Assembly: GCF_988243305.1 (NCBI RefSeq)
Contig: NZ_OZ547136.1
Length of the DNA: 64,000 nucleotides
Reading direction: 5' to 3' (one strand)
A program made the position numbers and the translations under genes. A model generated the notes under the pieces. The model saw only the letters and a program-made list of their open reading frames with translations, made no database searches and was not told the origin of the DNA. Each line of letters opens with the position of its first letter. Position 1 is the first letter of the stretch. Of this stretch, positions 6,265 through 50,208 are shown in pieces.

Positions 6265-6280
6265 AAGTTCCTCACAGTTT

Positions 6281-6324
6281 GCCTTGCCTGATGCGACGCT
6301 CACGCGTCTTATCAGGCCTACAAG
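6281..6324. repeat. REP (repetitive extragenic palindromic) element between cysI and cysH
   Basis: gccttgcctgatgcgacgctcacgcgtcttatcaggcctacaag: classic REP imperfect palindrome. Confidence 0.6.
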
Positions 6325-6337
6325 ACCGGGCTGATGG

Positions 6338-8050: not shown

Positions 8051-9849
8051 TAGTAGACATCTCGCTGATAACGGCGCTCTACGCGCAGCTCACTTAAAAA
8101 TTCATCCGCCGCTTCGGTGTCCATGCCACCAAATTCGGCAATCACTTCCAGAAGTGCCTGCTCAACATCTTTCGCCATGCGATTAGCGTCGCCGCAGACA
8201 TAAATGTGGGCACCGTCATTGATCCAGCGCCACAGCTCCGCGCCCTGTTCGCGCAGTTTGTCTTGTACATAAACTTTTTCTTTTTGGTCGCGCGACCAGG
8301 CAAGATCGATGCGGCTCAATACGCCTTCTTTCACGTAGCGCTGCCACTCCACCTGGTAGAGGAAATCTTCCGTAAAGTGCGGGTTGCCAAAGAACAACCA
8401 GTTTTTACCCGGCGCTTCGTCAGCGGCGCGCTGCTGCATAAAGGCGCGGAACGGCGCGATGCCGGTGCCTGGGCCAATCATAATCACCGGGGTTTCTGGG
8501 TTGGCTGGCAGGCGGAAGTTGTCGTTATGTTCGATAAATACGCGGACTTCGCCCTCTTCTTCCACGCGGTCCGCGAGGAAGCTGGAGGCACCACCGGCAC
8601 GGGCGCGGCCTTCCACGTCGTAACGCACCACACCAACGGTAACGTGCACTTCGTTCTCGACTTCCGCCTGCGAGGAGGCGATGGAATACAGGCGCGGGGT
8701 CAGCGGGCGCAACAGGTTAATCAGCGCTTCGGCATCCAGTTGCGCCGGAGAGAAACGCACCATGTCGACAATCGGCGTGGTCGCGGCGTAATGCTGTAAC
8801 TTCGCTTTATCGCCCACCAGCGGCAGCAGCGTTTCGCTGCGGGTAAGCGTGGCATAGTTCTCAACAATGTTGGCGGTGTTGACGGTCAGTTCGAAGTGCC
8901 ACTGTAGCGCTTCGTTCAGAGGCAACGTTTTGCCCTCGACGGTGACAGGTTCATCACCTTTCAGCCACAGCAGTTCGACAAGTTCTTTCACCAGTGCCGG
9001 ATCGTTCTGATACCAGACGCCCAGCGCGTCACCCGGCTGGTAACGCAGGCCCGAGTCACCTAAGTCAATTTCGATATGGCGAACGTCTTTTTCAGAGTTA
9101 CGCCCGGTAATTTTCTGGTTAACAGAGAGGCTCGCCACCAGCGGCGCGTCTTTGCTGTACGGGCTGGTGTGGATTTCATTTACCGCGCCAGTAGCGACGG
9201 ATTGCGAAGGTGCCGCGACAGGCGCACGCGATTTAAGCGCATCAACCACGCGGGCGCGCCACTCGATGGCAGCAGCCTGGTATTCAACGTCGGCATCGAC
9301 ACGGTCGAGCAGGCGTTCACCGCCCAGTTCCGCCAGCTTGCTGTCAAAATCTTTCCCGGACTGGCAGAAAAATTCATAAGAGCTATCGCCGAGGCTAAAC
9401 ACGGCAAATGCGGTGTTTTCCAGCTTCGGCGCTTTTTTGGAGAACAGGAACTTATGCAGCGCGACGGCTTCTTCCGGCGGTTCCCCTTCTCCTTGCGTTG
9501 ACGTCACCACGATAAGCAGTTTTTCGCTGGCGATTTGTTTGAATTTATAGTCGCCCGCGTTCACCAGCTTAACGTTCAGTTTTGCCGCCAATAAATCATC
9601 GCGTAACGCTTCAGCAACCCGGCGCGCATTGCCGGTTTGTGAAGCGGAGATAATAGTTATACCCGGCATTTCTGCGGCGGGCGCTGGCGTCGCTGCAAGC
9701 GCAGCTGGCTGCTGGTTGAGCACGCCCCAGAAATAGCCAGAAACCCAGGCAAGCTGGGTGGGAGTTAAATCGGTCGTGGCCGCCTGAAGGCGTGCCAGTT
9801 GCTCCGGGTTCAACGGAAGCAACGCGGAAGGTGGGACCTGTGTCGTCAT
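8050..9849 (-). CDS. cysJ: Sulfite reductase flavoprotein alpha subunit (599 aa)
   Basis: 599 aa ORF with flavodoxin-like N-terminal and FAD/NADPH reductase C-terminal regions; ends ...RYQRDVY. Confidence 0.95.
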
Positions 9850-29998: not shown

Positions 29999-30069
29999 TC
30001 ACTAGTTAAACTGAAACTCCAGACAAACAACGCGTACCCAGGGTACGCGTTGCCGTTCTAACTTTTTTC

Positions 30070-31722
<1,653 letters not shown>

Positions 31723-31934
31723 TTAGGTTGAAAAGACGATGGAATAACCAGGACGGGAAAGCAGTATACCCGAACATGACCTGTGCCACAAACTTTCATT
31801 ATCCCTCCTCTTCGCCAGCGCACTATTGAAATCAGGAGTGAGAAAATAGCCCCTTTGGGGTAAATGTTTTTGACGCAAATCAAGCGCTTGTCATTTAAAA
31901 AATGACACAAATCGCGCTTGACCACGTAATTCCC

Positions 31935-32726
31935 TTAGAGATCAATTTCCTGCCGTTTTACCTGTTGCCAGACTTCTTCCATTGTTTCGAGGTCAACACC
32001 TGTCATTTCCAGTCCACGCGCGGCAACAATACGCTCCACTTCGCGAAAACGACGCTCGAATTTTTCGTTCGCTTTTTGCAATGCGATTTCCGCTTTTGTC
32101 CCTAAATGACGAGCCAGATTGACCGTGGCAAACAGCAGGTCGCCCATTTCCTCCTCCAGTTTAGCCTGGTCGATAACAGCCTGCCGTGCCTCGTACATCA
32201 CCTCGTCGATCTCTTCGTAGACTTTATCGACTACCGGACCAAGCGTCGTCCAGTCAAAACCAACGTTGGCGCAACGTTTCTGGATTTTTTGCGCACGCAT
32301 TAAAGCCGGTAAACTACGAGGAATATCGTCCAGCGCCGAATGCTGCGCTTTCTGCGCGCGCTCTTCGGTTTTGATTTGCTCCCAACGGGCAAGCACTTCA
32401 CTACTGTTTTCGGCAGAACTGTCAGCAAAAACATGCGGATGGCGACGTTCTAATTTATCGCTGATCGCGGCGCATATATCATTAAAGTCAAAGCGCCCTT
32501 CTTCCTGAGCCATTTGTGCGTAAAACACCACCTGGAACAGCAGATCGCCCAGTTCACCGCGAAGATCGTCAAAATCTTCACGGGCGATGGCGTCCAGCAC
32601 CTCGTAGGTTTCTTCAAGGGTGTAAGGCGCAATGGTGGCAAATGTCTGCTCTTTATCCCACGGGCAGCCGTTTTCCGGATCGCGCAGGCGCTGCATGATG
32701 GTGAGCAAACGGTCGATTTGATTCAT
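31935..32726 (-). CDS. mazG: Nucleoside triphosphate pyrophosphohydrolase MazG (263 aa)
   Basis: 263 aa ORF downstream of mazF in the relA-mazEFG arrangement. Confidence 0.92.
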   Translation of the reverse strand: MNQIDRLLTIMQRLRDPENGCPWDKEQTFATIAPYTLEETYEVLDAIAREDFDDLRGELGDLLFQVVFYAQMAQEEGRFDFNDICAAISDKLERRHPHVFADSSAENSSEVLARWEQIKTEERAQKAQHSALDDIPRSLPALMRAQKIQKRCANVGFDWTTLGPVVDKVYEEIDEVMYEARQAVIDQAKLEEEMGDLLFATVNLARHLGTKAEIALQKANEKFERRFREVERIVAARGLEMTGVDLETMEEVWQQVKRQEIDL

Positions 32727-32797
32727 TAGAATGTCCTGAAAATTGCGGGTCTGTCAGGTGGAAACCTGTGACCAGAATAGAAGTGAGTTAGTAACAC

Positions 32798-33133
32798 CTA
32801 CCCAATCAGCACGTTAATTTTGGCTTTAATGAGCTGTAATTCCTCTGGGGCAACCGTTCCTTTCTTCGTTGCTCCTCTTGCCCGCCAGGCGATACTTTTT
32901 ACCTGATCAGCTAACGCTACGCCATCACGTTCCTGACCGGATAAAACAACTTCGAACGGATATCCTTTTGATTGCGTTGTACAAGGAACACACAGACACA
33001 TACCTGTTTTGTTGTTGTACATGAACGGACTCAGGACAACAGCCGGACGATGTCCGGCTTGCTCGCTACCTTTTGTCGGGTCAAAATCAACCCAAATCAG
33101 ATCGCCCATATCGGGTACGTATCGGCTTACCAT
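32798..33133 (-). CDS. mazF: MazF toxin, ACA-specific mRNA interferase (111 aa)
   Basis: 111 aa [39 protein letters not shown]...; overlaps mazE by 1 bp. Confidence 0.93.
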   Translation of the reverse strand: MVSRYVPDMGDLIWVDFDPTKGSEQAGHRPAVVLSPFMYNNKTGMCLCVPCTTQSKGYPFEVVLSGQERDGVALADQVKSIAWRARGATKKGTVAPEELQLIKAKINVLIG

Positions 33134-33381
33134 TACCAGACTTCCTTATCTTTCGGCTCCCCCCAGTCGATATTCTCGTGGAGGTTTTCCGGCGTGATGT
33201 CGTTGACCAGTTCAGCAAGCGTAAATACGGGCTCTTTACGCACTGGCTCAATAATTAATTTGCCATCCACCAGGTCAATCTTCACTTCATCATCAATATT
33301 CAGATTGAGCGCCTGCATTAACGTAGCCGGGATCCGCACCGCCGGTGAATTTCCCCAACGCTTTACGCTACTGTGGATCAT
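33133..33381 (-). CDS. mazE: MazE antitoxin (82 aa)
   Basis: 82 aa [31 protein letters not shown]... (AbrB/SpoVT-like fold). Confidence 0.93.
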
Positions 33382-33458
33382 AACCCTTTCCTCAAACCGC
33401 TATCATATGTAGATACAGTATATATCAATCTACATTGTAGATACGAGCTAATTTCGGC
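33382..33458 (-). promoter_or_regulatory. mazEF promoter/operator region with alternating palindrome
   Basis: Sequence tatcatatgtagatacagtatatatcaatctacattgtagatac contains inverted repeats (atgtagat / atctacat) directly upstream of mazE. Confidence 0.45.
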
Positions 33459-35693
33459 CTAACTCCCGTGCAACCGACGCGCGTCGATAACGTCTGGCAC
33501 CTGATTGAGTTTACCCAGCACGCGGCCCAGCACTTGCAGATTGTAAATCTCAATGGTCATGTCGATAGTCGCCAGTTGCTGTTTAGTGTCGCTACGGCTG
33601 GCAACGCCAAGCACGTTCACCTTCTCGTTGGCAAGAATGGTCGTGATATCACGCAATAATCCACTGCGATCATTGGCCATCACCCGGACCACCAGCGAAT
33701 ATCCGGCGGAGTAGCTCTCACCCCATACCGCGTCAACAATGCGTTCTGGCGCATGGGAGCGCAGTTCCGCCAGTTGTTCGCAATCGGCGCGGTGTACTGA
33801 AATACCGCGTCCCTGGGTAATGAAGCCGACAATCTCATCTCCAGGAATCGGCTGACAGCAGCGCGCGATGTGGTGCATCAGGTTGCCGACACCTTCTACC
33901 ACCACACGACCGTTATCTTTACTGCGGTTTTGCGGCGTATAGCTTTTTTGCTGAAGTTGCTTCAGCGCGGCGGCATCCTGCTCTTCGGCACTCGGCTTAT
34001 TAAATTGCGATTGCAGGAAGTTCACCATCTGATTGAGACGGATATCCCCGCCACCAATTGCCGCCAGCAACTCGTCGACATCATTGAAGTTGTAACGCGG
34101 CAGCAGATGTTTTTCTGCTTCTTTCAGGCTGATCCCCAGATGTTCCAGCTCGTCGTCAAGGATTTGCCGCCCAGCCAGAATGTTTTTGTCACGGTCCTGT
34201 TTACGGAACCAGGCGTGAATTTTCGAACGCCCACGGCTGGTTGTGACGTAACCGAGGTTTGGGTTTAACCAGTCACGGCTGGGGTTCGGCTGTTTCTGGG
34301 TGATAATTTCAATCTGGTCGCCCATCTGCAGCTGGTAGGTGAACGGCACAATGCGCCCGCCAATTTTTGCCCCGATGCAGCGGTGTCCGACATCACTGTG
34401 GATGTGGTAAGCGAAGTCCAGCGGTGTTGATCCCGCAGGCAAATCAACGACATCACCTTTCGGCGTAAAGACGTACACCCGGTCGTCAAAGACCTGGCTA
34501 CGTACTTCGTCGAGCATTTCGCCGGAATCAGCCATCTCTTCCTGCCACGCAATCAGTTTACGCAGCCAGGCAATCCGGTCTTCATGTCCCGAACGTGCGC
34601 CGCCAGCTGCCGCGCCCTCTTTATATTTCCAGTGCGCAGCAACACCCAACTCTGCATCTTCATGCATCTGTTTAGTGCGGATTTGGATCTCAACGGTTTT
34701 GCCACCTGGTCCCAGAACCACGGTATGAATAGACTGATAACCGTTTGGTTTCGGGTTAGCGACGTAATCGTCAAACTCATCCGGCAGGTGGCGATAGTGA
34801 GTGTGCACTATCCCCAGTGCGGCATAACAATCCTGTAAACGCTCGGCGACAATACGTACCGCACGCACATCAAACAGCTCATCGAAGGCGAGGTTCTTTT
34901 TCTGCATTTTGCGCCAGATGCTGTAGATGTGTTTCGGACGACCATACACTTCAGCTTTAACGCCTTCAGCTTTCATCTCAGCGCGCAGATGGCCGACAAA
35001 CTCTTCGATATAGTGTTCGCGGTCGAGACGGCGTTCATGCAGCAGTTTTGCGATGCGTTTGTATTCGGTCGGGTGGAGATAACGGAAGCAGTAATCTTCC
35101 AGCTCCCATTTCAGTTGTCCAATCCCAAGACGGTTCGCCAACGGCGCGTAGATATTGGTGCACTCTTTTGCCGCCAGTACGCGTTCATCTTCCGGCGCGT
35201 CTTTTACTTCGCGCAGATGAGCAATACGCTCTGCCAGTTTGATGACCACGCAGCGAAAATCATCGACCATCGCCAATAACATCCGGCGAACGTTATCGAC
35301 CTGTTCGGAGGAAACAGAATCGGTATGCGTCGCTTTCAGCTGGCGGATCGCCGCCATATCACGCACGCCGTGAATAAGGTTAACGACCGACTTACCGACG
35401 CTCTCACGCAGCACATCTTCGCTGACTACGTTGGCATCCGCCAGAGGGAACAGCAGCGCCGCCCGCAGCGTGTCAATGTCCATACTTAATGTCGAGAGGA
35501 TCTCCACCATCTCAACACCACGCCACAATAACAGACTGGCATCCGGATGCCCCTGCGTCTGTTGCAGACAATACGCCCAGGTTTCGGCTAAGCACTCACA
35601 CGACTTCTGGCTGGTAATACCCAGACTTGCGATCCATTTTTCCGGATCAAATTCACCAGCCTTATTGATATGTGCACTTCTTACCGCAACCAT
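33459..35693 (-). CDS. relA: GTP pyrophosphokinase, (p)ppGpp synthetase I (744 aa)
   Basis: 744 aa ORF with RelA/SpoT synthetase domain, TGS and ACT regions. Confidence 0.97.
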   Translation of the reverse strand: MVAVRSAHINKAGEFDPEKWIASLGITSQKSCECLAETWAYCLQQTQGHPDASLLLWRGVEMVEILSTLSMDIDTLRAALLFPLADANVVSEDVLRESVGKSVVNLIHGVRDMAAIRQLKATHTDSVSSEQVDNVRRMLLAMVDDFRCVVIKLAERIAHLREVKDAPEDERVLAAKECTNIYAPLANRLGIGQLKWELEDYCFRYLHPTEYKRIAKLLHERRLDREHYIEEFVGHLRAEMKAEGVKAEVYGRPKHIYSIWRKMQKKNLAFDELFDVRAVRIVAERLQDCYAALGIVHTHYRHLPDEFDDYVANPKPNGYQSIHTVVLGPGGKTVEIQIRTKQMHEDAELGVAAHWKYKEGAAAGGARSGHEDRIAWLRKLIAWQEEMADSGEMLDEVRSQVFDDRVYVFTPKGDVVDLPAGSTPLDFAYHIHSDVGHRCIGAKIGGRIVPFTYQLQMGDQIEIITQKQPNPSRDWLNPNLGYVTTSRGRSKIHAWFRKQDRDKNILAGRQILDDELEHLGISLKEAEKHLLPRYNFNDVDELLAAIGGGDIRLNQMVNFLQSQFNKPSAEEQDAAALKQLQQKSYTPQNRSKDNGRVVVEGVGNLMHHIARCCQPIPGDEIVGFITQGRGISVHRADCEQLAELRSHAPERIVDAVWGESYSAGYSLVVRVMANDRSGLLRDITTILANEKVNVLGVASRSDTKQQLATIDMTIEIYNLQVLGRVLGKLNQVPDVIDARRLHGS

Positions 35694-35740
35694 CGTCCTC
35701 TCCTTTAGGGACCAGACCTGCCGAAATCGGCAAATCGTAA

Positions 35741-37042
35741 CTATTTAACGCGCGAGAAAAGTACCATCGATTCCAGATGTCCCGTGTGTGGGAACATATC
35801 CAGCATCGCCAGTCGCGCAATGGTATATCCTGCTTTTAATAACGCTTCGCTATCCCGAGCCAGCGTTGCAGGGTTACAGGATACATAAACTATACGAATA
35901 GGTTCCAGTTTTATAATTTGCTGCATAACACCTGCGGCACCTGCTCGCGCGGGGTCCAGCAACACTTTATCGAAGCCGTTTTTCGCCCACGGCTGCTTTG
36001 TGACATCTTCTTCAAGATTTTCGTGATAAAACGTCACATTGTGTAAGTCATTAAGACGCGCATTCTGCTGGCCTTTTTCCACCAGCGCCGGAACACCTTC
36101 TACACCCACCACACTGGCAGCTTGTGTCGCCAATGGCAGTGTAAAGTTGCCCATACCGCAGAACAGATCCAGTACGCGATCTTCAGGTTGCACATCCAGC
36201 CATTCCAACGCACACGCTACCATTTTTTGGTTCACACCCGCATTGACCTGAATAAAATCGCGCGGGCTAAAAGTTAAGCGCAACCCGTTTGAGTCATACC
36301 AGGGCATCTCACCAGCGACGGTTTCGAGTATCTCACTATCGGGGGCGAGATACAGATCCAGGCCTTCAGAATGCGAAAAGCGTTCCAGTTTTTCGCGATC
36401 TGCCGAACTTAGCGGTGCGGTATGGCGCAAAATCATCAGCGTGCCGCTGGTTGCCTGTACCAGTTCAACATGACCAAGATGGCGCATAGCTTGTAAGCTG
36501 CCCAGGCATGCCCTGACTTTGGGCAGCAATGCTTCAAGTTGGGGCACTAAAATGGGGCATTGTTTAACGTCGACAATGTCACTGGAGCCCGCTTTGCGAA
36601 AGCCCATCTGAAGTTGCTGTGTTTTCGGTAAGTAGTTCAAACTTAAACGCGCGCGACGGCGATAGCCCCAGGGAACATCGGCGATCACTTCAGAGACCTC
36701 GTGTTTCATTAATCGGGCGAGTGCCGCACTTTTGCTTCGCTGCTGTAAATCCTCGCTGGCGTGTTGTTGCTGACAGCCGCCGCATACGCCAAAATGAGGG
36801 CAGCGTGGCGTTTCGCGTTCCGGGCTATCGCTTAACCGGCGCACGACTTTAGCGCGGGCGTATTGTTTTTTATCTTCAGTAACAGTAACTTCCGCGTTTT
36901 CCTGTGGCAATAATCCAGGAATAAATAACGCTTTGCCGTTATGTCGTGCCACGCCCTGACCAAAAGAGTCGAGGTCGTTGACTGAAACAGTTATGATCTG
37001 ACGCGTCGTCGTGCGTCGTTTTGCAGAGTAGAATTGCGCCAT
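35741..37042 (-). CDS. rlmD: 23S rRNA (uracil1939-C5)-methyltransferase (433 aa)
   Basis: 433 aa ORF; TRAM-like N-terminus and 4Fe-4S cysteines ([11 protein letters not shown]), SAM-MTase C-terminus. Confidence 0.92.
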
Positions 37043-37098
37043 TGGCGAGACTTTCTCAATTTAACAGTGTGACCTTAATTGTCCCATAACGGAACTCC

Positions 37099-39855
37099 AT
37101 GACCAACTACAGCCTGCGCGCACGCATGATGATTCTGATCCTGGCACCGACCGTCCTTATTGGTTTATTGCTGAGTATCTTTTTCGTTGTGCATCGCTAT
37201 AACGATTTGCAGCGTCAACTGGAAGATGCCGGAGCCAGCATTATTGAGCCGCTTGCAGTTTCTACTGAATATGGCATGAGCCTGCAAAATCGCGAATCTA
37301 TCGGTCAGTTAATAAGCGTACTGCATCGTCGCCATTCCGATATTGTTCGCGCGATTTCGGTTTATGATGAAAATAACCGACTCTTTGTCACCTCCAATTT
37401 TCATCTTGATCCCTCATCAATGCAGCTCGGCAGCAACGTGCCGTTTCCTCGCCAGCTCACTGTCACTCGTGACGGCGATATTATGATCCTCCGCACACCG
37501 ATTATTTCTGAGAGTTACTCCCCCGACGAATCGCCCAGTAGCGATGCCAAAAATAGTCAAAATATGTTGGGATATATTGCGCTTGAGCTGGATCTTAAAT
37601 CGGTTCGCTTGCAGCAATATAAAGAGATCTTTATTTCCAGCGTGATGATGCTGTTTTGTATCGGTATTGCGCTTATTTTTGGCTGGCGCTTAATGCGCGA
37701 TGTAACCGGTCCGATTCGCAATATGGTGAATACCGTCGACCGCATCCGTCGCGGGCAACTCGACAGCCGGGTGGAAGGATTTATGCTCGGCGAGCTGGAT
37801 ATGCTGAAAAACGGTATCAACTCGATGGCAATGTCGCTGGCTGCTTATCACGAAGAGATGCAGCACAATATCGACCAGGCGACGTCCGATCTGCGTGAAA
37901 CGCTGGAGCAGATGGAAATTCAGAACGTTGAGTTGGATCTGGCGAAAAAGCGTGCCCAGGAAGCGGCGCGTATTAAATCCGAGTTTCTGGCAAATATGTC
38001 ACACGAGCTGCGTACACCACTGAATGGTGTTATTGGCTTTACTCGCCTGACGCTGAAAACAGAATTAACACCAACGCAGCGCGATCACCTGAATACGATT
38101 GAACGTTCGGCAAATAATTTGCTGGCAATTATTAATGATGTTCTCGACTTCTCGAAACTGGAAGCAGGTAAGCTGATTCTGGAAAGTATTCCATTCCCAC
38201 TACGCAGCACGCTGGATGAAGTCGTTACCCTGCTGGCACATTCTTCTCACGATAAAGGGCTGGAACTGACGCTCAATATTAAGAGCGACGTGCCCGATAA
38301 CGTAATTGGCGACCCACTGCGATTACAGCAAATCATCACTAACCTGGTAGGGAATGCAATTAAATTCACCGAGAATGGCAACATTGATATTCTGGTAGAA
38401 AAACGTGCGCTGAGTAATACCAAAGTGCAGATTGAAGTGCAGATTCGGGATACCGGCATTGGTATTCCTGAACGCGATCAATCGCGCTTATTCCAGGCCT
38501 TCCGACAGGCTGATGCCAGTATTTCCCGCCGTCATGGTGGCACCGGGCTGGGGCTGGTGATTACACAAAAACTGGTTAATGAAATGGGCGGCGATATTTC
38601 GTTCCATAGCCAGCCGAATCGCGGTTCAACTTTCTGGTTCCACATTAATCTCGATCTGAACCCGAACATTATTATCGAAGGGCCATCCACCCAGTGCCTA
38701 GCCGGCAAGCGCCTGGCCTATGTCGAACCAAACTCCGCAGCAGCGCAATGCACGCTGGATATTTTAAGTGAAACGCCGCTGGAAGTGGTTTATAGCCCAA
38801 CGTTCTCCGCGCTGCCTCCCGCGCATTACGACATGATGTTGTTAGGCATCGCGGTGACCTTCCGCGAGCCGCTAACAATGCAACATGAGCGATTAGCGAA
38901 AGCGGTATCGATGACCGATTTTCTGATGCTGGCACTTCCTTGCCATGCACAAGTCAATGCTGAAAAACTTAAGCAAGATGGTATCGGCGCGTGTCTGCTG
39001 AAACCATTAACACCTACGCGCCTGTTACCTGCCCTGACGGAATTTTGTCATCACAAACAAAACACGCTTTTGCCTGTAACCGATGAAAGTAAGCTGGCAA
39101 TGACAGTCATGGCGGTTGATGACAACCCCGCTAACCTGAAACTTATCGGCGCATTGCTGGAAGATATGGTGCAACATGTGGAACTTTGCGATAGCGGGCA
39201 TCAGGCGGTTGAACGGGCGAAACAAATGCCGTTCGATTTGATCTTAATGGATATTCAAATGCCGGACATGGACGGCATTCGGGCCTGCGAGCTCATCCAC
39301 CAGCTCCCCCATCAGCAACAAACGCCAGTTATCGCGGTAACGGCGCATGCAATGGCCGGGCAAAAAGAGAAGCTGCTTGGCGCAGGGATGAGCGATTATC
39401 TGGCGAAACCGATTGAAGAAGAGCGATTGCATAATTTGTTGTTGCGCTACAAGCCTGGCAGCGGTATTTCCTCTCGCGTCGTGACGCCCGAAGTCAACGA
39501 AATTGTGGTGAACCCGAATGCGACCCTCGACTGGCAACTGGCACTACGCCAGGCAGCAGGAAAAACCGATTTAGCGCGCGATATGCTGCAAATGTTACTC
39601 GATTTCCTGCCTGAAGTTCGCAACAAAGTTGAGGAACAGCTGGTTGGAGAAAACCCGGAAGGCCTGGTTGATTTGATTCATAAACTGCATGGCAGTTGCG
39701 GCTATAGCGGTGTGCCGCGTATGAAGAATCTCTGCCAACTGATCGAACAACAGCTACGTAGCGGTACTAAAGAAGAAGATTTGGAGCCGGAGCTGCTGGA
39801 ACTGTTAGACGAGATGGATAATGTAGCGCGCGAAGCCAGCAAAATTCTCGGGTAA
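37099..39855 (+). CDS. barA: Hybrid sensor histidine kinase BarA (918 aa)
   Basis: 918 aa; TM/HAMP N-terminus, H-box ([11 protein letters not shown]), receiver domain ([14 protein letters not shown]), C-terminal HPt. Confidence 0.95.
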
Positions 39856-39987
39856 CGGACGTCTTGTCGAGTCAAAATAGGTTCCGTCCAATGCCAATGC
39901 TGGGAGCAGCACAGACAGTCCCCTCGCCCCTCCGGGGAGAGGGCGAGGGGGAAAACCGGCCCCGTAAACCACTTCGTCAGTAATCTC

Positions 39988-40022
39988 AAACCGACTTCTT
40001 ATGAAGCCGGTTTTGGTTTTCT
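39988..40022 (+). terminator. Putative rho-independent terminator downstream of barA
   Basis: Hairpin aaaccgacttc-ttat-gaagccggttt followed by ttggttttct; preceded by a GC-rich palindrome (cccctcgcccctccggggagagggcgagggg) at about 39925-39956. Confidence 0.45.
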
Positions 40023-40025
40023 GTC

Positions 40026-41366
40026 TTAACGCACCATGCACGGGCGCTTGTTATCAAACGTCCAGCCAGGAATCAGATACTGCATTCCCATCGCATCGTC
40101 TCGCGCACCAAGCCCATGTTTCTGATACAGCTCGTGGGCTTTCATCACCTGATCCATATCGATTTCTACACCCAATCCTGGTTTTTGCGGCACCTGTACC
40201 AGCCCGCCTTTGATCTCAAACGGTTCTTTGGTCAGACGCTGATTGCCTTCCTGCCAGATCCAGTGCGTATCAATAGCAGTAATTTTACCCGGTGCGGCTG
40301 CGGCAACGTGGGTAAACATCGCCAGGGAGATATCGAAGTGGTTGTTAGAGTGTGAACCCCAGGTCAGGCCAAATTCATGGCACATTTGCGCCACACGTAC
40401 CGAACCTTGCATCGTCCAGAAATGCGGATCCGCCAGCGGGATATCAACGGATTGCAGGGAGAGCGTATGGCCCATCTGCCGCCAGTCGGTGGCGATCATA
40501 TTGGTTGCGGTCGGCAGGCCAGTCGCGCGACGGAACTCTGCCATCACTTCACGCCCGGAGAAACCTTGCTCCGCACCACACGGATCTTCTGCATAAGCCA
40601 GCGACCCTTTCAGGTATTTACCAATTTTAATCGCTTCGTTCAGCGACCAGGCACCGTTAGGATCGAGGGTAATACGCGCCTGTGGGAAGCGTTGCGCCAG
40701 TGCCACAATAGATTCTGCTTCTTCTTCTCCGGCCAGTACACCGCCCTTCAGTTTGAAATCGTTGAAGCCATATTTTTCATACGCCGCTTCCGCCAGGCGC
40801 ACCACCGCATCCGGCGTCATCGCTTCTTCGTGACGCAGGCGATACCAGTCACATTTATCATCCGGCTGGCTTTGATACGGCAGCGGTGTGGCTTTGCGAT
40901 TACCGACGAAGAACAGATAACCGAGCATTTCGACTTCGCTACGCTGTTGACCATCGCCCAGCAGCGATGCCACGTTAACCCCCAGATGCTGCCCCAGCAG
41001 ATCCAGCATTGCCGCTTCTATCCCGGTAACCACATGAATAGTGGTCCGCAAATCAAATGTCTGCAAACCGCGCCCGCCGGCATCACGATCGGCAAATGTA
41101 TTACGCACCAGCGTCAGAACGTTTTTGTATTCACCCAGCGTTTTACCCACCACCAGCGGAATCGCATCTTCCAGCGTTTTACGGATTTTCTCGCCGCCGG
41201 GAATTTCCCCTACGCCGGTGTGACCAGAATTATCTTTGATAATCACAATATTACGCGTGAAGAACGGTGCGTGTGCACCACTCAGATTCATCAGCATACT
41301 GTCATGGCCCGCCACCGGGATGACCTGCATTTCAGTAACAACAGGCGTCGTAAATTGAGAACTCAT
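40026..41366 (-). CDS. gudD: Glucarate dehydratase (446 aa)
   Basis: Enolase-superfamily member, start taken at [25 protein letters not shown]. Confidence 0.92.
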
Positions 41367-41386
41367 ATTTATGTCCTTTTTCAAAA

Positions 41387-42727
41387 TCAATGACGGCCGA
41401 AAACGGGACGTTTACGGTCATAGGTCCAGCCGGGGATCAGGTACTGCATCGGGCCCGCGTCGTTACGCGCACCGCCAGGCAGACGTTTATAGGCCTCATG
41501 CGCCTTTTGTACCTGCTCCCAGTCCAGTTCCACGCCCAGACCGGGCGCATCAGGAACGGCAATTTTTCCGTTTTTAATCTCCAGCGGATTTTTGGTCAGG
41601 CGACAATCTCCCTCCTGCCAAATCCAGTGGGTATCGATAGCGGTAGGATTACCCGGTGCCGCCGCACCCACATGGGTAAACATCGCCAGAGAGATATCGA
41701 AGTGATTATTGGAATGGCAGCCCCAGGTCAGCCCCCAGTCGTCGCAAAGCTGCGCCACGCGGACTGCACCGGAAAGCGTCCAGAAATGCGGATCGGCAAG
41801 TGGAATATCCACCGCATTGAGCATTACCGCATGGCCCATTTCGCGCCAGTTGGTGGCAATCATGTTGGTCGCGACGGGCAGGCCGGTCGCCCGTCGAAAC
41901 TCCGCCATCACTTCACGACCGGAGAAACCCTGCTCAGCGCCGCATGGATCTTCAGCATAGGTGAGAACATCATTCAGCCCTTTGCACAGAGAAATTGCTT
42001 CATCAAGCAGCCATGCACCGTTGGGATCAACGGTAATCCGCGCATCCGGGAAGCGTTTCTTCAATGCACGAACAGTGTCGATTTCTTGCTCGCCAGGTAA
42101 CACGCCGCCCTTAAGTTTGAAATCTTTAAAGCCGTAGCGATCCTGTGAGGCTTCCGCCAGACGCACAACGGCTTCGCTGTTCATCGCTTTCTGATGGCGC
42201 AACTGATACCACTCATGGTTGCCCGGCGTATTTTCCAGATAAGGAAGATCGGTTTTGGTCCGATCACCGATATAAAACAGATAACCGAGGACGGTAATAG
42301 CCTCGCGTTGCTTGCCTGGCCCCAACAGTTCGCAGACCGGAACATTCAGCGCCTTACCTAGCAGGTCAAGCAAGGCGGCTTCCAGCGCCGCCACGGCATT
42401 AACGCGCAATTCAAAAGTCCAGGCACCTTTGCCGAAGGTATCAAAATCGGCTGCCTGATTACCTTTATGCACCTGCTGAACCACTTTATTCAGGCGCGCA
42501 ACTTCCTGGCCCAACACCATCGGAATAGCATCGACCAGTGTCTGATAAATCACCTCTCCGCCTGGCGCTTCACCAATGCCGGTATGCCCGGCGTTATCGG
42601 TGAGTACCACAATATTGCGAGTGAAATATGCGTTATGCGCCCCACCAATATTAAGCAACATGCTATCGTGCCCGGCGACCGGAATGACTTTCATATCAGT
42701 AATAACAGGACTGGATTGTGTCGTCAT
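41387..42727 (-). CDS. gudX: Glucarate dehydratase-related protein (446 aa), paralog of gudD
   Basis: [24 protein letters not shown]..., highly similar to the downstream gudD product. Confidence 0.92.
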
Positions 42728-42728
42728 C

Positions 42729-44081
42729 TTATTGCCCCGCGACAGGTTTCAGCTCGATACGCTTGATATCGCCCACCAGCACCAGGTAGCTCAGTACCGC
42801 GATTAAGGCATGAACACCAACATAAATCAGCGCCCCATTAAACGAGCCAGTCGTGCCAACGATATAACCAATTGCGATTGGCGTGACGATGCCAGAAATG
42901 TTACCGAACATGTTGAACAGGCCACCGGAAAGACCGCTGATCTCTTTTGGCGCGGTATCTGCCATTACTGCCCAACCCAGCGCCCCGATGCCCTTACCGA
43001 AGAAGGCCAGCGCCATAAAGCCGATGATCATCCACTCAACGTTGACGTAGTTGCAGAACACCATCACCATCGACAGCAACATGCCCATTACGATCGGTGT
43101 TTTACGCGCAATGTTCAGCGATCCCGTGCGGCGCATCAGCCAGTCGGAAATAATCCCACCCAGCACACCGCCGATAAAACCGCAAACCGCCGGAACGGAA
43201 GCCACAAAGCCCGCTTTCAGAATCGACATCCCGCGTGCCTGCACCAGATAAACCGGGAACCAGGTAATAAAGAAGTAAGTCAGGGCGTTGATACAGTACT
43301 GACCGATATAAACGCCGATCATCATCCGTGACCCGAGCAGCTGTTTGATCTGCCCCCACTTCACACTGAACGGTACTTTAACTTTGGTGTTTTGCTGATC
43401 CATATTGATCAGCGCGCCACCCGCGGCGATATACTCCAGCTCTTTCTGATTTACCCCCGGATGTTGATTTGGCTCGTGGATGACTTTCAACCAGATAAAG
43501 CTGATGACAATGCCCAGACCGCCCATAAAGAAGAAGACGTGTGACCAGCCCACTTCATGCGTCAGCCAGCCCATAATCGGCGCGAAGATCACCGTTGCGA
43601 AGTATTGAGCGGAGTTAAAAATCGACACCGCCGTTCCCCTTTCCTGCGCCGGAAACCAGGCCGCTACAATGCGACTGTTACCGGGGAAAGATGGCGCTTC
43701 AGCAAGCCCGACCAGGAAGCGCAGCGTAAACAGGGCAACGATAATGCCGAATCCACTAAAAATATCGACGAAGCCTTGCAGCAAGGTAAACATCGACCAG
43801 ATAAAGATCGACCAGAAGTAGACGCGTTTTGAACCAAAACGGTCCAGCAACCAGCCACCAGGGATCTGCCCGATAACATAAGCCCATGAGAAAGCAGAGA
43901 ACACATAGCCCATTCCCACAGGATCAAGGCCGATATCTTTGGCCATTTCCGAACCGGCGATAGAGAGCGTAGCGCGGTCGCCGTAGTTGAAGGATGTGAC
44001 GATAAACAACATCACCACTATCCAGTAACGAGCATTCGTGCGTTTTTCCACACTGCTCGCAGCCTGACTTAAAGAACTCAT
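42729..44081 (-). CDS. gudP: Glucarate/galactarate MFS transporter (450 aa)
   Basis: 450 aa hydrophobic MFS ORF heading the gudPXD operon. Confidence 0.92.
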
Positions 44082-44515
44082 TGTTGCACTCCTGAAAATT
44101 CGCGTTAGCCACGCTCACTCTGGACTGCGACATCGCCAGGAAATCAGAGGTGACGTAGGGTGTTTTTTGCCGTTTTTATAGGTCGTTCGCCGAATGCGGC
44201 GCGTGTTTATATCTGGCAATAGCAGTATAAAAAGCGCGCCATAGCGGCTCACCGTGCAACAACACAACATTAATGCGTTCAATGAGGCCCGATTTTGGCA
44301 TTAGCCCTGGACGGTGGAATCCACTTCACGGAAATGAAAACAAAAACAAGAAAGGAAGGGTTAAAACGAAGAAATAAAGAAGAGTATGAAATGGATCGCT
44401 TGACTCCAGGCAAACGCCAGTAAAAATCCACGCTATGAAGCAGTTTTTACTGGCATTTGCCTGAAAAGATTCGATTCAGCACCGCTAAAACGGCATTTCC
44501 CGCTCGCTGAACGTA

Positions 44516-44965
44516 TCAGGACAACAGCGTGCCCCAATGTTCGACCCACGGATTTGATTCCGTTTCCGGTTCCGGGTTCTCACTGGCGTCAATCAACAGC
44601 ATTTCTCCCACCCGCTGAGCGCTCTGTTCCTGCAACAAGGCATCGAACTGTTTGCCGCCATTGCAGAAATTCACATAACTACTGTCGCCGAGCGCAATCA
44701 CGCCATAACGCAGATTCGGCTGGAAGCCCAGACTATCTTTGATTCCCTGAAAGAGCGGCACAATGCTATCAGGAAGGTCGCCCTGCCCGGTCGTGGACGT
44801 AACCACCAGAACATACTTATCCTGATAGGGCAGCCAGTCGCTTAATTCAGGATCTTCAAATACCGTTGCTTTGTGGCCCTGCGCGGTCAGAATTGCTTCC
44901 GCTTCTTCCGCCACTAACAGCGAATTTCCGTACATGGTGCCCACAAAAATACCAATTTCCGCCAT
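44516..44965 (-). CDS. yqcA: Flavodoxin-like protein (149 aa)
   Basis: [26 protein letters not shown]..., short-chain flavodoxin fold. Confidence 0.9.
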
Positions 44966-44982
44966 ACCGTTTTCTCCCTGGA

Positions 44983-45765
44983 TTAGGAACTTATCTCTCC
45001 ATCCTGACCCGATGGCGCACTGAACTCAACCCTTTCATTTTCAGGAAGCAGACCCCGCCAGCCAAATTGTGATAACGCCTGCATCCAGGTGTCGTCCAGG
45101 CCCGCGTGAATAGTCAGCGGCTCGCCAGTAAAAGGATGCGTCAATGACAACTGACTGGCATGCAACATTAACCGCTGAAGGCCAAAATGTTCAGCACCGC
45201 TGCGATTCTGGCGTAAATCACCATGTTTGCTGTCGCCAATAATCGGGTGGCGCAAATGGGCAAGATGGCGACGGAGCTGGTGCTTACGTCCGGTTTTCGG
45301 CTCCAGTTCCACCAGGCCGTAGCGCGTGGTCGGGTAACGTCCGGTCGCTACCGGCATTTCTACGGTCGCCAGACCGCGATAATGCGTCACTGCTGGCTGT
45401 GGGCCTTTATCTTCGCGGGCAAATTTATCAGCGATTTTGTCCAGTTCTTCCACCAGTGGATAATCCAGAACTGCTTCTTCCATCAACCAGCCGCGCACAA
45501 TCGCATGGTAACGTTTCTGGATTTGGTGCTGCTCAAACTGTTGTGCCAGCAGCCGTCCGGCCTCGCTGGATAATCCCATCAACAACACACCAGAAGTTGG
45601 TCGGTCCAGACGATGAGCAGTAAACACATGCTGGCCTATCTGGTCACGCACGGTTTGCATGACCACTACTTTCTCGTCGCGATCCAGCCAGCTGCGGTGA
45701 ACCAGCCAGCCGGAGGGTTTATTTACCGCAACCAGCCATTCATCCTGATAGAGTATTTCCAGCAT
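44983..45765 (-). CDS. truC: tRNA pseudouridine(65) synthase (260 aa)
   Basis: RluA-family catalytic motif ([13 protein letters not shown]). Confidence 0.9.
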
Positions 45766-46094
45766 TAGCTCGCATCATCCGCAAAAAGAGCATCCAGTTT
45801 TTCCAGCTCAGCCAGAATAAGCGCGCGTTGCGGGTAGTCCGTCGCCAGCGCCATTTCATAATAGGGTGCAACGGCAAAAGCGCCCGGTAACGGCTGGTTG
45901 TTATCTAACAAATCGTGCATTCGCGGAATAAGCACCCACTGCAACCACTCCAGTGGTTCCATGGTGTCCATAAAGAACGGTTGGGTACTGTTAAATTGAT
46001 GCGGCTGGGGTTCATCGTTTCGCCAGTGCTGATGTTCACGCAGTAACGCTTCAAGCGCCTGCAACTGGAGACGAACGCGGTCATGAGTGGTCAT
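45765..46094 (-). CDS. yqcC: DUF446-family protein (109 aa)
   Basis: 109 aa ORF overlapping truC start by 1 bp. Confidence 0.85.
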   Translation of the reverse strand: MTTHDRVRLQLQALEALLREHQHWRNDEPQPHQFNSTQPFFMDTMEPLEWLQWVLIPRMHDLLDNNQPLPGAFAVAPYYEMALATDYPQRALILAELEKLDALFADDAS

Positions 46095-46140
46095 AAAGCA
46101 ACCTCAATAAGAAAAACTGCCGCGAAGGATAGCAGGAATA

Positions 46141-46505
46141 AAAAAAGGGAGCACTGTATTCACAGTGCTCCCGGTTCGTTTCGCAGCATTCCAGCTACTT
46201 TTGTTGCTCCCTGCTCATCCTTGACAACTTTTCCTCTGGCCTTGCGGCCAATCGTTCATCCTGAACTATTGCTTCCTGCTCACACCACCCCGATGTGATA
46301 CTTCATCCTGAAGTGTCCCTGGCCTTCCTGACCCACCGAATCATCCTGACCGGTTCTCATTCTCCATCCTGGAGGTGTCCTTTAACGCGTCCTGCGTCAT
46401 CCTCTTCGCTTCATCCAGAAGCCTTTCCCTGAAACACCATCCTGGTGTGTCCTTCAGAAGTGTCATCATCCTGATGTTCACTTCGTTGTCTGACTCCCTG
46501 TCGAC
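46141..46505 (-). ncRNA. csrB: CsrB small RNA (CsrA-sequestering), about 365 nt
   Basis: Minus strand begins GUCGACAGGGAGUCAGACAACGAAG... and carries about 18 CAGGA(U/A)G-type GGA motifs (plus-strand catcctg/ttcctg/tccctg); ends in terminator hairpin gggagcactg-tattca-cagtgctccc plus U-run. Confidence 0.85.
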
Positions 46506-46678
46506 GAAGATAGAATCGTCTTTTTCGCGAAGTCTTACAAGGCGCTTACAGACAATGCCTTAAGGAAAATTTCATATGAAAGTTAAGAATTGACAAGCAA
46601 TATATTGATTTTAAATGAAAATAACGATTCTTATCTTTTTAAGTATTCGCTTATTTCCTGGCGATCTCCTACAGAGTC

Positions 46679-46696
46679 TGTAAGAGATCTCTCACA
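46679..46696. promoter_or_regulatory. 18-bp perfect palindrome TGTAAGAGATCTCTCACA, UvrY response-regulator binding site upstream of csrB
   Basis: Perfect inverted repeat centred about 182 bp upstream of the inferred csrB 5-prime end, between syd stop and the csrB promoter. Confidence 0.6.
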
Positions 46697-46715
46697 ACCA
46701 GATGGGGTATTTGGA

Positions 46716-47261
46716 TTACAGAAGAGGCTTAAGTTGATTAAGGAATTCCGCAAGATTTGAGGCTAAATGCGTCCGTTTACGTGTTCCCAGCGTCTCTTTG
46801 CACACTTCACCGGAGAGATTACACACCGAGATGACCTCTAACTCTTCTTCCAGCGTCGCGATAAATAGCGTGGGCGGCAATTTTAGCCTTTTCTGAGTCA
46901 CCAGATGACCAATCAGATTTTCCTGCACCCGACGGAAGTCGTCTTCACTCCAGGTTTGCAGCAATGTCAGTTTGATATCGCCAAACTGCGCGTGCATATC
47001 CCCGGCAAACTGAGTCGTATAAAAGGTATGAATTGTGGGTTGTATCACAAGATCAAAAGCGCGTTCAACCGCGTTTACATTTTGTTCCCCGGTAAACGGC
47101 TGGGGTTGCCAGTATACGGCATCTTCGGTGGTTGAAATAATGCACGGTGAAGGAACGCCGTACAGTTCCTCACTCAACGGCCAGCTTTTATGCTCTTCAT
47201 GCCACGCATCGCAGTAGCGTGCAGTAAAATCTTTCAGGGCTTGTGCGGTCAAATCGTCCAC
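46716..47261 (-). CDS. syd: SecY-interacting protein Syd (181 aa)
   Basis: 181 aa [26 protein letters not shown].... Confidence 0.9.
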
Positions 47262-47328
47262 TAATTTCTCTCTTCACTTAAACCAGATACACTTGTCGTT
47301 TAGTTTATCTGGTTTATGACGGTGAAAC

Positions 47329-48177
47329 ATGTCTTCTTATGCAAACCATCAGGCACTTGCGGGCCTGACTCTTGGAAAATCAACCGATTACCGGGATACC
47401 TATGACGCCAGCCTGCTACAAGGCGTTCCGCGTAGTCTGAATCGCGATCCGCTGGATCTGAAAGCGGATAACCTGCCTTTTCACGGTACGGATATCTGGA
47501 CGCTGTATGAACTTTCCTGGCTGAATGCGAAAGGTTTGCCGCAGGTCGCCGTCGGTCATGTTGAACTTGATTACACCAGCGCAAATCTGATTGAATCGAA
47601 GAGTTTTAAGCTCTATCTCAACAGTTTTAACCAGACGCGTTTTAATAACTGGGATGAGGTGCGCCAGACGCTGGAGCGCGACTTAAGCACTTGCGCTCAG
47701 GGTAAGGTTAGCGTGGCGTTATATCGTCTTGATGAACTGGAAGGCCAACCGATAGGTCATTTCAATGGCACTTGCATTGATGACCAGGATATCACTATCG
47801 ATAACTATGAATTCACTACTGACTATCTGGAGAATGCCACCAGTGGCGAAAAAGTAGTAGAAGAGACGCTCGTCAGCCACCTGCTGAAATCAAATTGCCT
47901 GATCACCCATCAACCAGATTGGGGATCGATCCAAATTCAGTATCGTGGACGCCAAATTGACAGAGAAAAACTGCTGCGTTACCTGGTTTCTTTCCGTCAT
48001 CACAACGAGTTCCACGAACAGTGCGTGGAACGCATCTTTAATGACCTGTTACGCTTCTGCCAGCCAGAGAAATTGAGCGTTTACGCACGTTATACCCGTC
48101 GTGGCGGTCTGGACATTAACCCGTGGCGCAGTAATAGCGATTTTGTCCCATCGACCACAAGACTGGTTCGGCAATAA
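47329..48177 (+). CDS. queF: NADPH-dependent 7-cyano-7-deazaguanine (preQ0) reductase (282 aa)
   Basis: 282 aa two-domain QueF type. Confidence 0.92.
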
Positions 48178-48288
48178 ATTTTTTCTCAATTTTGCGTGCT
48201 GGATTCACGCAGAAGGTTGTGAAAGGTCATCAGGCAGGGCTATTGTAATCAAAGGGAATGACGATATTCGTCCCATAAGGAGTTTTTC

Positions 48289-49653
48289 TTGATTACACAT
48301 ATTAGCCCGCTTGGCTCCATGGATATGTTGTCGCAGCTGGAAGTGGATATGCTTAAACGCACCGCCAGCAGCGACCTCTATCAACTGTTTCGCAACTGTT
48401 CACTTGCCGTACTGAACTCCGGTAGTTTGACCGATAACAGCAAAGAATTGCTGTCTCGTTTTGAAAATTTCGATATTAACGTCCTGCGCCGTGAACGCGG
48501 CGTAAAGCTGGAACTGATTAATCCCCCGGAAGAGGCTTTTGTCGATGGGCGAATTATTCGCGCTTTGCAGGCCAACTTGTTCGCGGTTCTGCGCGACATT
48601 CTCTTCGTTTACGGGCAAATCCATAACACCGTTCGTTTTCCCAACCTGAATCTCGACAACTCCGTCCACATCACTAACCTGGTCTTTTCCATCTTGCGTA
48701 ACGCTCGCGCGCTGCATGTTGGTGAAGCGCCAAATATGGTGGTCTGCTGGGGCGGGCACTCAATTAACGAAAACGAGTATTTGTATGCCCGTCGCGTCGG
48801 GAATCAACTGGGCCTGCGTGAGCTGAATATCTGCACCGGCTGTGGTCCGGGAGCGATGGAAGCGCCGATGAAAGGCGCTGCGGTCGGACACGCACAGCAG
48901 CGTTACAAAGACAGTCGTTTTATTGGTATGACAGAGCCGTCGATTATCGCCGCTGAACCGCCTAACCCGCTGGTCAACGAATTGATCATCATGCCGGATA
49001 TCGAAAAACGTCTGGAAGCGTTTGTGCGTATCGCTCACGGTATCATTATCTTCCCTGGCGGTGTGGGTACGGCAGAAGAGTTGCTGTATTTGCTGGGAAT
49101 TTTAATGAACCCGGCCAACAAAGATCAGGTTTTACCATTGATCCTCACCGGCCCGAAAGAGAGCGCCGACTACTTCCGCGTACTGGACGAGTTTGTCGTG
49201 CATACGCTGGGTGAAAACGCGCGCCGCCATTACCGCATCATCATTGATGACGCCGCTGAAGTCGCTCGTCAGATGAAAAAATCGATGCCGCTGGTGAAAG
49301 AAAATCGCCGCGACACAGGCGATGCTTACAGCTTTAACTGGTCAATGCGCATTGCGCCAGATTTGCAAATGCCGTTTGAGCCGTCTCACGAGAACATGGC
49401 TAATCTGAAGCTTTACCCGGATCAACCTGTTGAAGTGCTGGCTGCCGACCTGCGCCGTGCGTTCTCCGGTATTGTGGCGGGTAACGTAAAAGAAGTCGGT
49501 ATTCGCGCCATTGAAGAGTTTGGTCCTTACAAAATCAACGGCGATAAAGAGATTATGCGTCGTATGGACGACCTGCTACAGGGTTTTGTTGCCCAGCATC
49601 GTATGAAGTTGCCAGGCTCAGCCTACATCCCTTGCTACGAAATCTGCACGTAA
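48289..49653 (+). CDS. ppnN: Nucleotide 5-prime-monophosphate nucleosidase PpnN (454 aa), TTG start
   Basis: LOG-family motif ([10 protein letters not shown]); TTG start at 48289 preceded by taaggag. Confidence 0.9.
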
Positions 49654-49662
49654 TCTCCCTCC

Positions 49663-49697
49663 CCCGGTGACGTTTGTTGCCGGGTTTTCTCGTTTTT
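49663..49697 (+). terminator. Putative rho-independent terminator downstream of ppnN
   Basis: cccggtgacgtttgttgccggg hairpin followed by ttttctcgttttt. Confidence 0.5.
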
Positions 49698-50208
49698 GGT
49701 CACATACCCATCAATTTATTTCATTTGTTATATGAATGTTTCTTACCACCCTCACGCGATAAATATCATTACAGTTAATATGTCATACAATTTATGTTGT
49801 AACGCAAACGTTTCCCTATTTTCATAAACCACATTTTATCGCTATGAAAAAGAAATTATCGCCATGATTAACTAAAAGTATTGATTTTTTCAGTTCAACC
49901 TACATATATTGCGCGCCCCGGAAGAAGTCAGATGTCGTTTAATGGGCAAATATTGCCCTTAAATTCTCTTTTACTTTTGATTTACAGAGTAAAGCGTTGG
50001 GATAATCTATCTTCCAAGTAGATTATTGTATTTGAGATCAAGATCACTGATAGATACATAACTTGTGTGTATCTTTCCGCCCTCAAATTATTACGGCGGT
50101 AAATGATTAAGCCATCGCCGATAGACAGATTTCATTTTTACGGTCAGGCACCTTCCCGGGCTGAACTGGCTAAAAGCTGAATTATTTGCATTCCTCCAGG
50201 AGAAATAG

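Follow-up and report, generated by a model that had tools for sequence, protein, structure and literature searches.

The adjacent gudX and gudD genes descend from an ancient duplication, both copies are kept by selection, and there is no gene conversion between them in the window, by which we mean the whole 64,000-nucleotide stretch analysed (contig NZ_OZ547136.1 of NCBI RefSeq assembly GCF_988243305.1). We make with high confidence the joint statement that the pair is correctly identified, that its members are ancient and independent paralogs and that they do not convert each other. The 4.8-kb gudP/gudX/gudD segment was found between barA and yqcA in 5,425 of 5,426 complete E. coli genomes; the locus is thus already known, and in E. 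coli the pair is ordinary and stably kept. As it stands the pair matters little, being annotated in essentially every E. coli genome, with crystal structures available for the proteins and their complex. Its residual value lies in GudX, a conserved E. coli protein without an assigned physiological role. The options for this protein are narrowed here: it is constrained like GudD, keeps all the catalytic residues and differs only in the lid loops, and an X-type gene can be the sole member of the GlucD family beside kdgD at some bacterial loci.

Identity of the two genes

Both genes lie on the minus strand. The glucarate dehydratase-related protein (GlucDRP/YgcY, 446 aa) is encoded by gudX at 41387-42727, and D-glucarate dehydratase (GlucD, 446 aa) by gudD at 40026-41366. 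They directly follow gudP (42729-44081, minus strand), the first gene of the operon, which is identified by its ORF and annotation as an MFS glucarate/galactarate/glycerate transporter gene. The initial annotation had described exactly this arrangement of two adjacent 446-aa enolase-superfamily paralogs under the names gudX and gudD; layout, names and paralogy all stand, with PDB, Pfam, annotation and BLASTP in agreement. The minus-strand gudD ORF as listed spans 40026-41390 and begins with a TTG at 41390, and an internal ATG at 41366 gives a product of 446 aa. Because residues 1-446 of this product align with residues 1-446 of PDB 1EC7, we take the ATG at 41366 as the start. RefSeq places gudD at the same position and labels it 'glucarate dehydratase', while gudX carries the label 'enolase C-terminal domain-like protein'.

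The two proteins have close counterparts of known structure. Window GudD matches 1EC7 over its full length (1030 bits), and it occupies the same operon position as GudD of E. coli K-12 (PDB 1EC7/1EC8/1EC9/1ECQ/1JCT/1JDF/3PWG), from which it shows allelic differences only. Its D-glucarate dehydratase activity would be expected from this near-identity to the characterised K-12 enzyme. Likewise, window GudX sits in the same place between gudP and gudD as K-12 GudX (4IL0, 4GYP) and is ~99% identical to PDB 4IL0 and to chain C of 4GYP (446 residues); about five substitutions separate it from the crystallised protein (T2A, E58D, L163V, K378Q and Y436F), with no functional difference implied. PDB 4GYP contains two GlucDRP chains together with chains identical to GlucD, as the 1EC7 sequence group lists 4GYP. 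Since the entry holds chains of both proteins, it is a GudD-GudX co-crystal, and this crystal entry places the pair among hetero-oligomers.

Profile searches put both proteins in the enolase superfamily (MR/MLE two-domain fold), for which we asked for MR_MLE_C above its gathering score, with or without the MR_MLE_N capping domain. In Pfam, GudX scored 173.5 bits for MR_MLE_C and 35.9 bits for MR_MLE_N (residues 39-136); GudD scored 163.7 bits for MR_MLE_C, and MR_MLE_N was not reported for it at E <= 0.001. The NCBIfam equivalog model for glucarate dehydratase, TIGR03247, separates the two: against a curated whole-protein cutoff of 828.7 bits, GudD passes with 899.3 bits and GudX fails with 747.7 bits. 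GudX is therefore not to be classed among the glucarate dehydratases.

Operon organization

The three genes follow one another on one strand as gudP, gudX and gudD, with junctions of the coupling type; this is the layout of the gudPXD operon, and annotated E. coli genomes show it too. The TAA stop of gudP is 1 nt from the gudX ATG. At the second junction, the TGA stop of gudX is followed by a 20-nt spacer (41367-41386, minus strand) that carries an AAGGA Shine-Dalgarno sequence at 41378-41374, with 7 nt between it and the gudD ATG. Such an arrangement suggests that the two genes are co-expressed, probably from a common transcript. Downstream, an 11-bp hairpin with one G-U pair (39988-40013, minus strand) begins 13 nt past the gudD stop and is terminator-like with a weak U tract. 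Further on, a GC-rich inverted repeat (CCCCTCGCCC..GGGGCGAGGGG; 39920-39950, given without a strand) lies between the convergent barA and gudD genes and is probably a bidirectional transcript-end structure. Both elements were recognised from sequence and predicted folding, and the 131-nt region 3' of gudD folds at -60 kcal/mol (z = -4.4). A scan of the gud operon for promoter and terminator consensus sequences returned nothing useful.

Divergence of the paralogs and age of the split

GudX and GudD share 283 of 448 aligned positions in BLASTP (63% identity, 590 bits, E = 0), and the codon alignment of the genes gives 65% nucleotide identity. The N-termini had been called near-identical, which overstates the case, as ~17 of the 25 residues aligned there agree, a level near that of the genes as a whole. 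Similarity is highest in two places further in: a 28-residue peptide identical in both paralogs at gudX codons 257-284 (41876-41959, minus strand; gudD counterpart 40512-40595), and a second identical block at codons 338-353 (41669-41716, minus strand; gudD counterpart 40305-40352). At four-fold degenerate sites only 69 of 161 positions are identical, with pS 0.68 and dS ~1.8.

We then surveyed relatives with one genome per species, which returned 80 loci. The tandem pair, X then D, is present in 33 of them, from Enterobacteriaceae, Erwiniaceae, Pectobacteriaceae, Yersiniaceae, Orbaceae and Pasteurellaceae, and 35 of the 38 X-clade genes lie directly upstream of an adjacent gudD. In Pseudomonas, Bradyrhizobium, Burkholderiales and Firmicutes there is only one such gene, and its product is 73-77% identical to GudD and 64-66% identical to GudX. 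The single-copy GlucD proteins of Pseudomonas, Bradyrhizobium and Bacillus (for example P. putida 1BQG) belong to the GudD clade and have identical catalytic residues and a D-type lid; unlike the window, their loci have no adjacent X-type paralog within 6 kb on either side. A neighbour-joining tree, rooted with outgroups of 34-40% identity from a representative search and bootstrapped 200 times, resolved an X clade and a D clade, each following the same species branching order. The X clade was monophyletic in 152 of 200 replicates; D-clade monophyly was weak (53/200), and enterobacterial GudD and GudX formed a monophyletic group in 0 of 200 rooted neighbour-joining replicates.

With synonymous sites saturated at dS ~1.8 and separate clades of mirrored species branching, the X/D split is ancient. 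It is older than the enterobacterial radiation and probably also older than much of the GudD radiation, with an exact depth that is uncertain because of the 53/200 support for the D clade and the use of neighbour-joining only. The alignment and phylogeny that had been proposed as a check on the duplication thus bear it out, with 63% identity, saturated dS and two separate clades. The reading of the pair as a clear ancient tandem duplication holds for paralogy and age; a tandem origin in situ is plausible rather than demonstrated, as the split is deeper than Enterobacterales. One alternative is that an older GudX lineage was later placed beside gudD by transfer or rearrangement and that the tandem layout owes nothing to a duplication within enterobacteria. 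The rooted tree, in which X is the sister group of all D sequences, those of Firmicutes and Pseudomonas included, is in line with such a history, as are the 63% identity of GudX to its own neighbour against 64-65% to Bacillus and Pseudomonas GudD and the X-type genes without an adjacent D in Halomonadaceae. We nevertheless consider it unlikely, given that in 33 genomes of three orders X always precedes D, both genes being read from one strand and separated by short spacers, which is a simple signature of tandem duplication, and that the rooting is weak and a faster rate in X could have drawn it rootward.

Tests for gene conversion

The pair had also been flagged as a potential site for gene conversion, a suggestion that did not survive testing. 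The longest run identical between gudX and gudD in the window is 18 nt, which gave no conversion signal in a codon permutation (P = 0.29). We further painted the genes by paralog, using sites at which >=85% of X orthologs and >=85% of D orthologs differ in base. In the window, gudX was X-type at 60 of 60 such sites and gudD was D-type at 60 of 60, leaving no conversion tract. Painting of 34 tandem pairs (68 genes) turned up no foreign tract that exceeded 4 sites. What recombination between the copies we did observe consists of rare deletion-fusions in other genomes.

Under ongoing conversion, the pair would be held similar by concerted evolution, the 63% identity would understate its age and the locus would be a conversion hotspot. 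Long identical runs do occur in some relatives (59 nt in one, 49 nt in another), residues privately shared by the two copies somewhat outnumber those in the controls (8, control mean 2.1), and the two deletion-fusions are real inter-copy recombination. However, the long runs fall in ultra-conserved peptides in which X/D identity across genomes is also ~85-92%, so that we rejected the run-length permutation flags in several relatives as conversion tracts, and 5 of the 8 privately shared states come from one divergent MAG. Moreover, painting of the 68 genes left no foreign tract above 4 sites, with the window free of any, the X and D copies of one genome never group together in the trees, and substitutions specific to the window are not biased toward the paralog. 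Ongoing gene conversion is effectively refuted for the window, and as an account of the pair it is extremely improbable.

The window carries an unusual gud allele. Its gud segment is at most 98.6% identical to any E. coli genome, against 99.7% for the flank. Compared with strain NY1601, there are zero differences across 34300-39800; divergence sets in at the boundary between barA and gudD and is greatest in the 3' half of gudX. The 26 differences in gudX and 19 in gudD are nearly all synonymous, including all 19 in gudD. When they were sorted by match to the paralog base, the counts were 9/8/9 for gudX and 5/6/8 for gudD, with the window allele not favoured over the other. We considered paralog conversion as the source of this allele and rejected it, as the differences show no bias toward the paralog and are nearly all synonymous; the allele is accordingly ordinary inter-lineage recombination or allelic mosaicism.

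Deletion-fusions in other genomes

The paralogs rarely recombine, and the two cases found lie at their two most conserved blocks. What appeared to be an 'X-only' gene in Pantoea stewartii is chimeric. Its product is X-type over residues 1 to ~260, where identity to GudX of Erwiniaceae reaches 97%, and D-type from residue ~265 to 445, where identity to GudD of Erwiniaceae is 94-98%. Informative sites divide accordingly, with 84 X and 5 D on the left and 39 D and 7 X on the right, and the crossover maps to codons 285-293, bordering the 28-residue block that both paralogs share. The exact hybrid protein is encoded on 11 contigs, among them the complete chromosome CP017581.1 and one from an independent read-set assembly, and is specific to P. 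stewartii. The gene order there is garD, gudP-hybrid-garL-garR-garK, barA. A gudX::gudD deletion-fusion is fixed in this species.

A search with a synthetic E. coli hybrid as query revealed an independent second fusion. In the complete genome of E. coli strain 2018-01-1CC, a single fusion ORF of 445 aa lies between gudP and barA; it is X-type through codon 352 (329 X and 10 D sites) and D-type from codon 353 (91 D and 6 X), with the crossover inside the conserved block of gudX codons 338-353. A normal X/D junction was found in 5,418 of 5,426 E. coli genomes, indicating that fusions are rare and that the tandem pair is strongly retained.

Catalytic residues, selection and the active-site lid

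In GudD, the working D-glucarate dehydratase, K207 or the H339-D313 dyad abstracts a proton with the help of Mg2+; the product, 5-keto-4-deoxyglucarate, goes to GarL. From structures of GlucD we take 17 positions (GudD numbering) to be catalytic or ligand-binding, namely N27, H32, T103, Y150, F152, K205, K207, D235, N237, E260, N289, D313, H339, N341, D366, H368 and R422. All 17 are present in both window proteins and are invariant in 38 X-clade and 79 D-clade sequences. Both proteins also carry what we assume to be the marks of the glucarate dehydratase subgroup (GudD numbering), the KxK motif K205/K207, the metal ligands D235/E260/N289 and the D313-H339 dyad. The catalytic regions are therefore similar, as originally described, in that the two proteins share every position so classed. 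The inspection of active-site residues that had been suggested for finding the fully competent copy does not discriminate, as both GudX and GudD retain all 17. The two genes are also under equally strong purifying selection, with dN/dS of 0.02-0.05 in both as the overall figure, and of 0.017-0.083 for gudX and 0.009-0.055 for gudD against orthologs.

Fixed differences between GudX and GudD are confined to 14 positions; GudD residues 28-29 and 88-114, which belong to the N-terminal capping domain, account for 10 of these. Most are in the capping-domain '100s loop', defined by the clade alignment as gudX codons 87-113 (42389-42469, minus strand) and lying within the MR_MLE_N match. Relative to GudD, the GudX lid has a two-residue insertion, a two-residue deletion and the exchanges Q102 to W103, D105 to E106, R94 to F95 and H111 to N110. 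We defined the X-type lid signature as I27-G28, the +2 insertion at 88-89, F95, W103, E106, the -2 deletion after R108, and N110. Window GudX has this lid, falls in the X clade and is X-type at all informative nucleotide sites, which makes it a member of the GlucDRP/GudX clade. W103 of GudX directly adjoins the Thr that presumably contacts the substrate. In the enolase superfamily, capping-domain loops set substrate specificity. Fixed changes in the lid loops together with a kept catalytic set fit altered substrate or lid behaviour and not lost chemistry. Our literature search on the capping domain and the 20s loop found nothing.

Possible function of GudX

Three X-clade genes lack an adjacent gudD within the 6 kb surveyed on either side. 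In Halomonas eurihalina the X-type gene lies between two kdgD genes and adjoins a TctCBA transporter, and in Salinicola it stands between kdgD and an aldehyde dehydrogenase gene. The kdgD product, 5-dehydro-4-deoxyglucarate dehydratase, consumes the product of GlucD. The Halomonas and Salinicola proteins keep the X-type lid, and like GudX they fail TIGR03247 (708 and 714 bits), as does the P. stewartii hybrid (764 bits). The occurrence of an X-type gene as the sole one of its kind at a locus, beside kdgD in Halomonadaceae, suggests that X-type proteins can be active first-step dehydratases.

Taken together, the analysis shows that gudX and gudD occupy second and third place in the Escherichia gudP-gudX-gudD operon for glucarate uptake and dehydration. 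They are ancient paralogs of the glucarate dehydratase subgroup that are packed for co-expression and evolve independently, without concerted evolution. For GudX itself we propose the following mechanism. GudX would be a catalytically competent acid-sugar dehydratase subunit and not a decaying or purely structural copy, its active-site lid presumably remodelled in the 20s and 100s loops of the capping domain. It would assemble with GudD, as in the 4GYP co-crystal. The substrate on which it acts, or toward which it tunes activity, would differ from D-glucarate and would probably be a further aldarate from which 5-keto-4-deoxyglucarate is likewise formed. This mechanism is put forward tentatively, and we rate its chances as a little below even. 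With somewhat less confidence still, GudX-type proteins may represent a distinct lineage of active aldarate dehydratases with a lid-set substrate preference of their own, which would form hetero-oligomers with GudD in Enterobacterales and act alone, feeding KdgD, in Halomonadaceae; the natural fusions would then be ready-made domain swaps.

An active, lid-diverged dehydratase subunit that partners GudD is the best-supported reading of GudX, and it competes chiefly with a role as non-catalytic partner, in which GudX would stabilise or modulate GudD in the hetero-oligomer as a structural or regulatory subunit and would keep its catalytic residues only for folding or ligand sensing. Such a role would agree with the 4GYP co-crystal, with the position of gudX, which nearly always precedes an adjacent gudD (at 35 of 38 X-clade loci), and with its failure at the GlucD equivalog cutoff. 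Hubbard et al. are also said to have obtained, in 1998, only very low GlucD activity from purified GudX protein, a low in vitro activity that would suit a non-catalytic subunit. We find this reading doubtful, however, as all 17 residues are invariant in 38 X-clade proteins from several bacterial orders, which would be unusual for a pseudoenzyme, and as the X-type genes beside kdgD in Halomonas and Salinicola have no adjacent GudD to regulate. Less probable again is a redundant isozyme of GudD for D-glucarate/L-idarate, kept for dosage or backup. The shared catalytic set, the shared operon and the 63% identity would allow for redundancy, and the hybrids of P. stewartii and E. coli 2018-01-1CC join both halves in an intact ORF. 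Yet the clade-specific lid differences have been fixed over deep time, dN/dS of GudX is as low as that of GudD without the relaxation expected of redundancy, 5,418 of 5,426 E. coli genomes keep both copies, and GudX scores under the GlucD equivalog cutoff.

In the open-access literature on gudX, GlucDRP and ygcY we found no biochemistry. A Tn-seq study in Dickeya solani lists gudX as a fitness gene on galactarate. We discounted this as evidence on what GudX does, since the operon there is gudP-gudX-gudD-garL-garR-garK and insertions are polar; with gudX upstream of gudD-garL-garR-garK, its phenotype is uninformative. The two natural X::D fusions are concrete material for tests of the X-type lid, and could reveal its role if GudX-type proteins are indeed a separate active lineage.

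The nearest solved relative of GudX outside Escherichia is the GlucD-related protein of Actinobacillus succinogenes (3N6H/3N6J/3PFR; 789 bits). It resembles GudX in its X-type lid sequence and catalytic set, and differs in being ~75% identical and in having been deposited only as a generic 'mandelate racemase/muconate lactonizing protein'.

Mosaic ancestry of the gud segment

The window is mosaic in ancestry, as revealed by the contrast between 39800-50000 and 30000-39800. When compared with E. coli strain NY1601, the stretch 34300-39800 contained 0 differences, whereas from the barA/gudD boundary onward the divergence rose to 1-3%. A second ancestry switch was located near 41996, within gudX (41387-42727, minus strand): the 5' 731 nt of the gene are exactly those of NY1601, and all 26 of the 26 gudX differences fall 3' of this point. 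We searched complete E. coli genomes for a match of at least 99% over 39800-44600 and found none. Among the variable positions, GudX residue 268 is Val in NY1601 (gudX at 7588-8928 of locus L081), Phe in the window and Tyr in some relatives, and it falls in the 28-residue block common to the two paralogs of the window (EQGFSGRE).

The convergent genes barA and gudD are separated by a region containing a near-perfect GC-rich inverted repeat (39920-39950; CCCCTCGCCC-N10-GGGGCGAGGGG), which occurs as a single copy within the 64,000-nt window. The corresponding intergenic region of E. coli strain 2018-01-1CC carries a REP-like sequence (GCCTGATGCG...CCGGATAAGGCG) instead. Inside gudD and gudX, two long ORFs run antisense on the plus strand (40377-41393, 338 aa, and 41390-42100, 236 aa); their translations are of low complexity and rich in Arg and His, and we rejected them as genes, regarding them as mechanical by-products of the coding strand.

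Fusions of gudX and gudD

In Pantoea stewartii CCUG 26359, a gudX::gudD hybrid (6001-7338 of locus L024) is the sole GlucD-family gene of its gudP-...-garLRK operon. It is X-type in sequence up to codon ~285 and D-type from codon ~293, and it apparently originated by deletion between tandem paralogs. The same hybrid was present in two further loci (L082, 4001-5338, from CP017581.1; and L083), and the identical protein was found on 11 contigs, one of which is a complete chromosome, under database names that vary between "enolase C-terminal domain-like protein" and "glucarate dehydratase".

Independently of this hybrid, a gudX::gudD fusion was found in one E. coli strain, 2018-01-1CC (3501-4838 of locus L084, corresponding to 3928138-3929475 of NZ_AP021892.1; also in NZ_AP027869.1). 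Its crossover lies at codons 352-353, in a conserved block different from that of P. stewartii. This fusion may be an assembly or laboratory artefact.

Gene arrangement in other lineages

Among the Enterobacterales loci compared, only the Acerihabitans arboris pair was rearranged (locus L029, 2732-4297, minus strand, and 5974-7320, plus strand), with gudD and gudX in divergent rather than tandem orientation and ~1.7 kb between them. The gudX and gudD genes of a record titled E. coli strain SCPM-O-B-8794 share 99% protein identity with those of the window at a dS of ~0.42; since this value is far above within-species divergence, the record probably represents another Escherichia species-level lineage despite its E. 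coli label. In Lucifera butyrica, both genes of the tandem pair (locus L054, 4512-7323) belong to the D clade, with 69% and 76% identity to GudD, and the pair looks like a separate duplication that took place in a Firmicute and has no connection with the X/D split.

GudX-type genes without a neighbouring gudD were observed in Halomonas eurihalina (locus L034, 4866-11632; order kdgD, X-type gene, tctCBA, kdgD) and Salinicola peritrichatus (locus L042, 3266-7388; order kdgD, X-type gene, aldehyde dehydrogenase), where they sit inside alternative glucarate-pathway clusters.
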